A DNA stretch of 64,000 bases from Dictyostelium discoideum (taxonomy: Eukaryota): the NCBI GenBank assembly GCA_000004695.1, contig CM000152.2, positions 5,024,001 to 5,088,000 of the forward strand. The letters are read 5' to 3'. Both the position numbers and the translations under genes were made by a program. The notes beneath the pieces are model-generated. The model saw only the letters and a list, made by a program, of their open reading frames with translations, was not told the origin of the DNA and made no database searches. Every line of letters begins with the position of its first letter. Position 1 is the first letter of the stretch. Positions 40,286-41,477 of the stretch are shown one piece after another.

Positions 40286-40448
40286 AAGAAAGTGTAATAG
40301 CCAGGATGAAATAAAAAATCTCAAATATTTTCAAAGGAAATAAATACCAAGTTAATATTTTATAAAACACTATTAAATGGGACCAATAGTTATAAGAAGT
40401 TGATTTTTATGTGTGAAAATATTGTGGCAAATAAAAATAAAATGAATT

Positions 40449-40590
40449 CAGCCATAGTAGTATAGTGGGAATATATTTTTCTCGTATAAATTTATTGTGA
40501 ATAATTAATTACAAAAAAAATGAAAATTTTTACAAATTCGAGCCATAGTAGTCTAGTGATAAGACGTTTCTCTCTTATAAAATTATACAG
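40449..40590 (+). pseudogene. Two tandem partial copies of the tRNA gene found at 46744: the 5' flank plus tRNA positions 1 to about 43.
   Basis: Positions 40510-40590, aaaatgaaaatttttacaaattcGAGCCATAGTAGTCTAGTGaTAAGACgTTTCTCTCtTATAAAATTATACAGgGAAGAA, match 46714-46800 (aaaatgaaaatttttacaaattaGAGCCATAGTAGTCTAGTGGTAAGACATTTCTCTCGTATAAAATTATACAGCGAAGAA) and then diverge into tgattaattacaaaac. Positions 40449-40500 are a more degenerate copy (cagccatagtagtatagtgggaatat.tttttctcgtataaatttat). The T-arm and 3' acceptor are missing. Confidence 0.7.
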
Positions 40591-40869
40591 GGAAGAATGA
40601 TTAATTACAAAACATTTTTTTTGTTTTGTTTTTTTTTTTTTTGAAATGGATAACGTCTCCTTGTGATGCAAGATCTCATTTTTTTAATTACAAAACTTTT
40701 TTTTTTTTAATCGTACAACGCAATTATTTTTATTACAAAACTTTTTTTTTTGAATTGGATAACCCAATTAATTTAAATTTTAATTACAAACTTATTTTGG
40801 ATTGGATAACGCAATTATTAGTTATGGTTTTTTATTTTTTTTTTTTGTTGCTCCTTGACTTTAATTACA

Positions 40870-40904
<35 letters not shown>

Positions 40905-41477
40905 AATTGGATAACGCAATTATTAGTTGCTTCTCCTTGAGATGCTAGATCTCATTTTATTTGTAGTTTTTTACAGGGTCTCTAAAAGAGGGGTTAGTTT
41001 ACTTTTTTTTTTTTTTTTTTTTTTTTTATTTTAATTACAAAACTTTTTTTTTGAATTGGATAACGCAATTATTATTTGCTTCTCCTTGAGATGCTAGATC
41101 TCATTTTATTTTATTTTTTTTTTTTTTTTTTACAGGGTCTCTAAAAGAGGGGTTAGTTTACTTTTTTTTTTTTTTTTTTTTTTTGTTTCGAATTTTGAAT
41201 TGTATTATTACTTTTGATTAAAACATCTTTTTTGTCCAAACTTTTTTCTAAATCTTTTTTTATTTTATCGTCTGGTTCGTGATTGATGTTTATGACGTAT
41301 TTGAATTGTTTTTTTTTTAATTGAGTTTTATCCACAATTTCGCTTATTTTTTGTAGGCATTTGTGTTGCTTAATATTTGTGGTGTTGTTTGTGATTTTCA
41401 TTTTATTTTCTTTCTATTTTTTATATTTTTCTTTAAAAAGTTAAAAATCTGGAAATTTTCTGATTAACTTGGGTTCC

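Follow-up and report, generated by a model that had tools for sequence, protein, structure and literature searches.

Probable serial insertion of TRE5-A at a single site upstream of the Dictyostelium discoideum ThrCGU-1 tRNA gene

TREs form tandems at tRNA genes that have been targeted before, and TRE5-A (formerly DRE) integrates within a window of 47 ± 3 bp upstream of tRNA genes (PMC5391098). De novo integration of tagged TRE5-A has been reported at 91 of 98 occupied genes, ThrCGU-1 being represented by 27, 15 and 45 mapped contigs (PMC5391098), while mutation of the B box abolishes targeting (PMC5911963, citing Siol 2006). The locus described here shares with the TRE-TRE tandems of Dictyostelium the head-to-head orientation and the 5' junction 47 bp upstream of the tRNA gene, the elements ending in a C-module and oligo(A) with variable 5' truncation and target-site duplications (TSDs) of 11-16 nt, and the placement of new copies between the older copy and the tRNA gene with none entering an older one (PMC5391098, PMC5006619). 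TRE5-A stacking is thus already published, and the present locus is a deep example of it, not a new kind. Our preferred reading, to which we give a probability of roughly 0.78, is that independent TRE5-A insertions have piled up in chronological order at one site about 47 bp upstream of ThrCGU-1, next to an older duplication of the target flank.

The window, by which we mean the whole stretch of 64,000 nt that was analysed (GCA_000004695.1, contig CM000152.2, positions 5,024,001 to 5,088,000), contains a single tRNA gene of 86 nt with an intron of approximately 15-17 nt. It carries the published ThrCGU primer, and its 86 nt correspond to the ThrCGU-1 entry (chr3 5070744-5070829; PMC5391098 S2 Table), which is the sole ThrCGU row in that table of tRNA genes; the window thereby falls at reference chr3:5,024,001-5,088,000. 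Its T-arm (GTTCGATTC) is intact (Rfam 49 bits) and its B box is predicted to be functional; it is the only complete copy with a B box at the locus and the actual integration target. The canonical TRE5-A 5' end, GAGATCG (taken from the comparison loci L001 and L009, see below), lies exactly 47 bp from position +1 of the tRNA, at the published primary site and on the opposite strand, and belongs to a full-length TRE5-A.1 whose 5' and 3' B-modules are 97% identical over 300 nt. The coordinates of the features are collected in Table 1.

Table 1 Features of the ThrCGU-1 locus (window positions unless L002, the same locus in GCA_054883475.1, is named; identities are to the canonical C-module).
Feature	Position	Strand	Remarks
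tRNA-Thr(CGU), ThrCGU-1	46744-46829	+	ARAGORN; Rfam tRNA 49 bits, E = 2e-8, full length
Spacer between tRNA and canonical 5' end of youngest element	46697-46743	+	47 bp
33-nt flank Y, tRNA side of spacer	46711-46743	+	
Proximal TSD copy in spacer, AATTACAAAAC	46700-46710	+	TTA at 46697-46699 just before
Full-length TRE5-A.1	41044-46696	-	Head-to-head with tRNA
A-modules (duplicated) of full-length TRE5-A.1	46382-46696	-	
5' B-module of full-length TRE5-A.1	46098-46397	-	
ORF1 of full-length TRE5-A.1	44971-46305	-	444 aa
ORF2 of full-length TRE5-A.1	41537-44680	-	
3' B-module of full-length TRE5-A.1	41190-41493	-	
Unit a, C-module of full-length TRE5-A.1	41053-41161	-	100%
A9 tail of unit a and full-length TRE5-A.1	41044-41052	-	
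TSD copy, AATTACAAAAC	41033-41043	+	Exact
Unit b, complete C-module with A30 tail	40874-41032	-	98%
TSD copy, AATTACAAAAC	40863-40873	+	Exact
Unit c, rearranged 5'-truncated C-module 3' end	40793-40862	-	92%
TSD copy, AATTACAAAC	40783-40792	+	1-nt deletion
Unit d, final ~25 nt of C-module and A10	40742-40782	-	96%
TSD copy, TATTACAAAAC	40731-40741	+	One mismatch
Unit e, final ~20 nt of C-module and A12	40697-40730	-	85%
TSD copy, AATTACAAAAC	40686-40696	+	Exact
Unit f, final ~58 nt of C-module	40614-40685	-	91%; 15-nt internal deletion
Distal-most TSD copy, AATTACAAAAC	40603-40613	+	Gives TTAATTACAAAAC with TT at 40601-40602
Unit g, partial target duplicate	40518-40602	+	Flank 40518-40541; tRNA nt 1-60 with intron 40542-40601
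TSD homologue in tRNA-fragment repeat, TAATTACAAAAA	40506-40517	+	
Unit h, older and more decayed partial duplicate	40430-40505	+	tRNA part from 40451
TRE5-A.2 (element 2)	L002 15276-17811		Intact 444-aa ORF1
5'-truncated TRE5-A.1 (element 3)	L002 17823-18793		971 bp

On the side of the element away from the tRNA gene, the locus consists of C-module units, and all six units a to f end in the C-module terminus GCGTTATCCAATTC followed by oligo(A), with 85-100% identity over the part that is kept. The two complete C-modules give a TRF period of 159 nt (1.9 copies, 90%), and the shorter units give periodicities of 44 and 23 nt over 40678-40819. Unit b is truncated at its 5' end inside the A-run of the B/C junction and shares a variant (AACTAATAATT) with unit c, which may stand for one or two events, while the oligo(A) tail of unit f is degenerate. 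The 5' truncation point, the length of the tail and the private changes differ from unit to unit. The 11-nt motif AATTACAAAAC, which can be extended to 13-16 nt, borders every unit as well as the tRNA-proximal junction. It occurs exactly five times in the 64 kb, every time inside the structure (chance expectation 0.6; none of 100 shuffles reached five), and when one mismatch is allowed two further copies are found inside the structure (at 40507 and 40731), both at unit boundaries, and three scattered matches elsewhere in the window. A sequence-only reading of the same DNA had described two full C-modules each with its own oligo(A) (units a and b), a run of shorter decayed pieces (c, d, e and f), and the 5' flank and first portion of the tRNA gene twice in tandem, truncated at the same point (g and h); all of these are present where it had placed them. 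It had also placed the motif at the start of every unit and in the spacer, which holds for the five exact copies and for the variants at the other boundaries, but the spacer that it gave as 51 bp measures 44 bp from the tRNA to the motif and 47 bp from the tRNA to GAGATCG. The length of "43 nt or so" that it gave for the tRNA fragments comes close as a position in mature numbering (approximately 46); their actual length is 60-61 nt including the intron. Its statement that tRNA pieces are interleaved with C-module pieces did not stand, as the tRNA pieces form one block distal to all of the C pieces instead.

The nature of the motif was addressed with ten TRE5-A loci from the chromosome-scale assembly GCA_054883475.1, which were fetched via the ORF1 protein and one of which (L002; CM142509.1:5,140,313-5,161,647) is the present locus. 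Seven other loci supplied ten C-module ends, each of which stops at GCGTTATCCAATTC+A(n) when up to two mismatches are allowed, and the sequence that follows is specific to each locus and different from the present motif. Because C-module ends elsewhere run into other local sequence, the motif (GTTTTGTAATT / AATTACAAAAC) is the TSD of the present locus and lies outside the C-module. The same ten ends contradict the idea that the tRNA-like fragments are ordinary constituents of the C-module. Stacks with shared TSDs are present at other TRE5-A loci too: the local sequence GATTAATCACCAAT occurs twice between the stacked elements of L001, TCGCAATTTTAA is repeated between those of L009, and GTGGGTTAAAG occurs twice, with a degenerate third copy, between those of L010. 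For L009 there is a paralogous, unoccupied Val-UAC locus in which the target is single-copy, that is, an empty site.

The second assembly also bears on whether the arrangement could be an artefact of the reference. Between the window and L002 the unique flanks differ almost solely in homopolymer lengths, units b to f show no substitutions and only two differences in A-run length, and units g and h are identical; since units b to h (40430-41043) are thus reproduced in an independent assembly, the reported region is not an assembly artefact, and we consider that explanation highly improbable for the arrangement as a whole. What speaks for it concerns the neighbouring element, as the window is short by 3,529 bp compared to GCA_054883475.1 and is a mosaic at three diagnostic sites. 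The additional sequence of L002 lies between the full-length element and unit b and comprises two elements, both bordered by GTTTTGTAATT, so that one TSD flanks three separate elements: a full TRE5-A.1, a TRE5-A.2 and a truncated TRE5-A.1. TRE5-A.2 has been defined as an AB-ORF1-BC structure whose 72-bp BC deletion spares 87 bp of the C-module (PMC3159450), and the L002 copy has this 72-bp deletion (27 nt of B, an A23 run and 22 nt of C) with the junction ...caaaa|gaccctg and 87 nt of C left. The window element corresponds to L002 element 1 in its 5' part and continues as element 3 in its 3' part; it has the A9 tail of element 3, and its ORF2-3'/B/C region is a mosaic of both copies at the three diagnostic sites, which leaves TRE5-A.2 and parts of two TRE5-A.1 copies missing from the window. 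The last 980 bp at the 3' side of the window element (41044-42022) therefore probably merge two elements, and the 3.5-kb shortfall there would reflect either repeats collapsed in the reference assembly or DNA lost by homologous recombination from the sequenced strain. The relation runs from the longer to the shorter version only, as the L002 version is not derivable from the window version by insertion, and the L002 version is biologically coherent because its extra elements carry the correct TSDs. TAA, directly after the TSD, is common to the 5' junctions of elements 1 and 2 of L002, and AAAAT to those of element 3 and unit b. These shared nucleotides point to the order of insertion, as they suggest that later insertions copied a few nucleotides of the 5' end of their predecessor.

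Taken together, the window appears to hold at least six to eight separate insertions, and the fuller assembly 8-9 events. Under serial insertion, Pol III factors would aim every insertion at the same site upstream of ThrCGU-1, where the endonuclease would nick the + strand just after AATTACAAAAC, at -33/-34, and the freed 3' OH would serve as primer for reverse transcription, which would begin at the oligo(A)/C-module end of the RNA. The opposite strand would be nicked 11-16 nt farther from the tRNA, by which the stretch between the nicks would be duplicated, and each new element would settle between the previous one and the tRNA gene. As the newest element would always lie nearest the tRNA, we infer an order from oldest and distal to youngest and proximal, with a TSD copy between each pair, and the shared TSD likewise points to the original distance of the older units from the tRNA. 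Most events would have been heavily 5'-truncated, hence the final 20-110 nt of the C-module and the tail are all that would be left of them. The units decay with distance from the tRNA (100, 98, 92, 96, 85 and 91% identity to the canonical C-module from a to f), and unit f is the oldest insertion still present. The earlier proposals of repeated integration at one tRNA target and of a readable record of serial retrotransposition are borne out by this anatomy, that is, by the canonical C end, oligo(A) and same TSD of each unit, the independent elements in L002, the differing truncations and the decay with distance from the tRNA, whereas nested integration, proposed alongside, does not fit elements that stand side by side with none inside another. 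Could the short C-module units instead be mainly tandem duplicates, produced by unequal sister-chromatid exchange or replication slippage from one or two old units of TSD and C-module end? Short tandem units with perfect direct-repeat borders would be a good substrate for unequal exchange, the AACTAATAATT variant is found in both b and c, and the 44- and 23-nt periodicities would be in line with such copying. We nevertheless consider it distinctly unlikely as the main process, given that each unit has its own truncation point, tail and private changes, that the three plainly independent elements of L002 are separated by the same TSD, and that shared-TSD stacks exist at other loci and are described as what re-targeting normally produces (PMC5391098). 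Some of the short units c to f could still owe their origin to unequal exchange between TSD copies.

The tRNA-derived units g and h have another character. Read on the + strand, both consist of TAATTACAAAA(C), the 5' flank and tRNA nt 1-60, followed directly by the next TTAATTACAAAAC. Unit g (40512-40601) is 92% identical to 46714-46803 over 90 nt, and unit h (40450-40495) matches the real gene at 87% over 46 nt and g at 80%. They comprise the initial 60-61 nt of the 86-nt gene and break off in the variable loop 5-6 nt short of the T-stem, and so have no T-arm and no B box; they keep the locus's own 5' flank (24 nt in g, approximately 17 nt in h) and the intron, whole in g and in part in h. 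Neither gives an Rfam tRNA match at E ≤ 1 or an ARAGORN call, and neither qualifies as a functional tRNA gene. No oligo(A) and no element sequence was found at either fragment junction, and no CCA, 3' half or SINE body was found in g or h. Because the 5' flank and the intron are kept, g and h are DNA-level copies and not processed tRNA, and their structure identifies them as what are most likely partial tandem duplications of -46 to +60. Both units stop at the same point and carry one derived G-to-T substitution at the junction, from which it follows that the junction arose once and that the unit of approximately 91 nt was copied afterwards. On the basis of topology, the most economical reading is that the fragments are older than the insertions: the junction between tRNA(1-60) and TTAATTACAAAAC would predate unit f because the + strand to the left of the nick in target-primed reverse transcription (TPRT) is the primer. 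Units g and h would then be the old upstream flank of the target, outside any insertion and older than the oldest one surviving, and, having no B box, they would bind no TFIIIC and would never have been targeted. No insertion was found 44-50 bp upstream of g or h, and insertion solely at the gene that has a B box accords with the loss of targeting reported for B-box mutants (PMC5911963).

Several other sources of g and h were considered and rejected. A processed tRNA retro-copy or a tRNA-derived SINE is at odds with the kept flank and intron and the missing tail, and a U6/L1-type chimera or a read-through antisense RNA misfits the orientation and position (reasoned from the anatomy). Gene conversion between tRNA paralogues, which the sequence-only reading had put forward, is an unlikely source, since the published table (PMC5391098 S2) has a single ThrCGU entry, and the fragments carry the locus's own 5' flank. 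A third, more decayed tRNA fragment to the left of h was not supported, as local alignment scored no better than shuffles, and a larger segmental duplication was dismissed after 39300-40450 and 46800-48000 showed no homology beyond low complexity. In D. purpureum, the neighbourhood orthologous to that of the flanking thioredoxin-domain gene contained no tRNA gene, and searches for homologous proteins of this flanking gene returned distant orthologues only, or nothing. Elsewhere in the window, a 167-aa ORF (33597-34100) had matches only on contigs of approximately 900 bp.

It is also possible, if rather unlikely, that the TRE5-A integration machinery produced the tRNA fragments as by-products, in which case the junction tRNA(+60)|TTAATTAC would have formed as a 5' junction by target priming, or as a scar left when staggered endonuclease nicks at -46 and near +60 were repaired. 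One of three routes could have led there: abortive TPRT with subsequent fill-in; copying of the local strand from a nick as far as the B box with its bound TFIIIC; or 5' transduction from a read-in transcript with later loss of the element body by TSD-TSD recombination. What makes these routes worth weighing is a match of boundaries, as the repeat starts at -46/-45, at the left boundary of the 13-nt TSD TTAATTACAAAAC (within 0-2 nt), which is the site of the second-strand nick and lies inside the canonical TRE5-A window (PMC5391098), and the fragments end 5-6 nt before the T-stem and B box, where TFIIIC is expected. By a rough post hoc estimate, a duplication unrelated to TRE5-A would match in this way by chance in a few percent of cases or less. 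Against a by-product origin, oligo(A) and element sequence are absent at the fragment junctions, later copying from the single junction with the substitution common to g and h needs no retrotransposon, no partial tRNA copy was found near the tRNA genes of the nine other TRE5-A loci, and every variant requires an additional unobserved step. The more specific proposal that g and h are scars, in which repair of a target that had been nicked by the endonuclease, or primed abortively, gave a tandem duplication from -46 to the edge of the TFIIIC-bound B box (+60), strikes us as quite improbable. The boundary match could nonetheless point to repair of endonuclease nicks, or to aberrant priming, as the source of the first duplication, and template switching during TPRT, suggested earlier, is conceivable as an origin of the tRNA pieces. 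Overall, the partial tRNA duplicates look like a minor, locus-specific oddity with one suggestive boundary match.

If serial insertion at ThrCGU-1 is correct, one nick site would have been used at least eight times, accumulation would have been tandem and not nested, with new copies beside their predecessor and never inside it, and the tRNA copies without a B box, which lie 90 and 180 bp away, would never have been hit, for which the missing B box is the probable reason. The locus would thereby be a natural illustration of targeting precision, tandem growth and B-box dependence, all of which have been shown experimentally for TRE5-A. Despite repeated insertion 47 bp upstream, the ThrCGU gene, single-copy in the published table, is still recognised as a complete tRNA. 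The reference under-represents the locus by 3.5 kb, which matters for TRE5-A copy counts and for the mapping of insertions at ThrCGU-1. The match between the fragment boundary and the nick site is the one point with discovery potential: were g and h indeed scars, a non-LTR retrotransposon could remodel and partly duplicate its own Pol III target and leave no element sequence behind.

Compared to the TRE-TRE tandems sampled, the present locus stands out by its depth, as the fuller assembly shows 8-9 events here and 1-3 at each of nine other loci (the comparison covers only about 8-9 other TRE5-A loci), and it is unusual in that one TSD was kept through all events and in that the target is the sole ThrCGU gene of the published table. 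With the stacks of Ty1/Ty3 and solo LTRs in yeast it has in common that a Pol III-directed window is reused and that partial elements are stacked upstream of one tRNA gene; the yeast elements differ in using an integrase and in leaving solo LTRs by LTR-LTR recombination, whereas TPRT here leaves 5'-truncated 3' ends with a tail and a TSD. Like tRNA pseudogenes, tRNA fragments and tRNA-derived SINEs, units g and h contain the 5' strand of the acceptor, the D-arm (A box) and the anticodon arm, but unlike pseudogenes and SINEs they keep their own flank and intron and stand in tandem with the parent gene, which makes them local DNA duplications. L1 chimeras (U6/L1) and L1 5'/3' transductions likewise place Pol III-related host sequence beside non-LTR remnants, with template switching as a conceivable source, but the geometry expected of a chimera is not seen here; in contrast to U6/L1, g and h are antisense to the elements and are not joined to an element 5' end, with a TSD copy in between.

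Comparison with a second chromosome-scale assembly (GCA_054883475.1) revealed that 3,529 bp present at the same locus there are absent from the window (41044-42022, compared with L002 14270-18804), comprising one TRE5-A.2 and the junction between two TRE5-A.1 copies. At three sites, the ORF2-3'/B/C segment of the window was found to be a mosaic of both TRE5-A.1 copies. Together, the missing stretch and the mosaic indicate that the two assemblies differ here by repeat collapse or recombinational deletion. The window ORF2 also differed from all ten copies in GCA_054883475.1 by H280N and G330E, and its residue 918 (C versus S) set it apart from 7/10 copies, the same-locus copy being among the seven. 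These three residues are consistent with the reference copy being a consensus-like or mixed-read reconstruction of the element.

Location of the compared TRE5-A and tRNA gene features
Feature	Location	Strand	Detail
TRE5-A ORF1-ORF2-B tandem	L006, L007, L008; CM142511.1, about 3.016-3.047 Mb		head-to-tail units
Val-UAC paralogues and adjoining features	L009 1326-1480, 8185-8420, 15224-15300		
TRE5-A ORF2 of the window	41540-44680	minus	residues compared: 280, 330, 918

Two further segments of the window were inspected. For 46986-47104, Rfam returned only miRNA-like matches, all of them sub-threshold, and no further copy was found among the other TRE5-A loci compared. At 40231-40288, about 150 bp distal of the older partial tRNA copy (fragment h), a T48 run is directly followed by A9, which may be either a homopolymer of the usual Dictyostelium intergenic kind or a tail left by a vanished element.

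L009 contains two paralogous Val-UAC loci, one without an insertion and the other occupied by a truncated C-module and a full TRE5-A with the target-site duplication (TSD) TCGCAATTTTAA; the unoccupied locus is thus a natural empty site. Both loci have a B-box-like remnant of a tRNA T-arm (GGTCGTGAGTTCGATTCTCAG) immediately distal of the TSD; relative to the Val gene, it is on the other strand.

Together, the three loci L006-L008, which overlap, contain at least five called TRE5-A ORF1-ORF2-B units arranged head to tail; in L007, two neighbouring units are 100% identical and repeat every 4,892 bp. A-module, C-module, oligo(A) and TSD are all lacking between the units, and the array looks like the product of amplification by exchange between 5' and 3' B-modules rather than of retrotransposition. 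Its 5' end carries tandem 200-bp A-modules, about three of them in L008 9300-9890.
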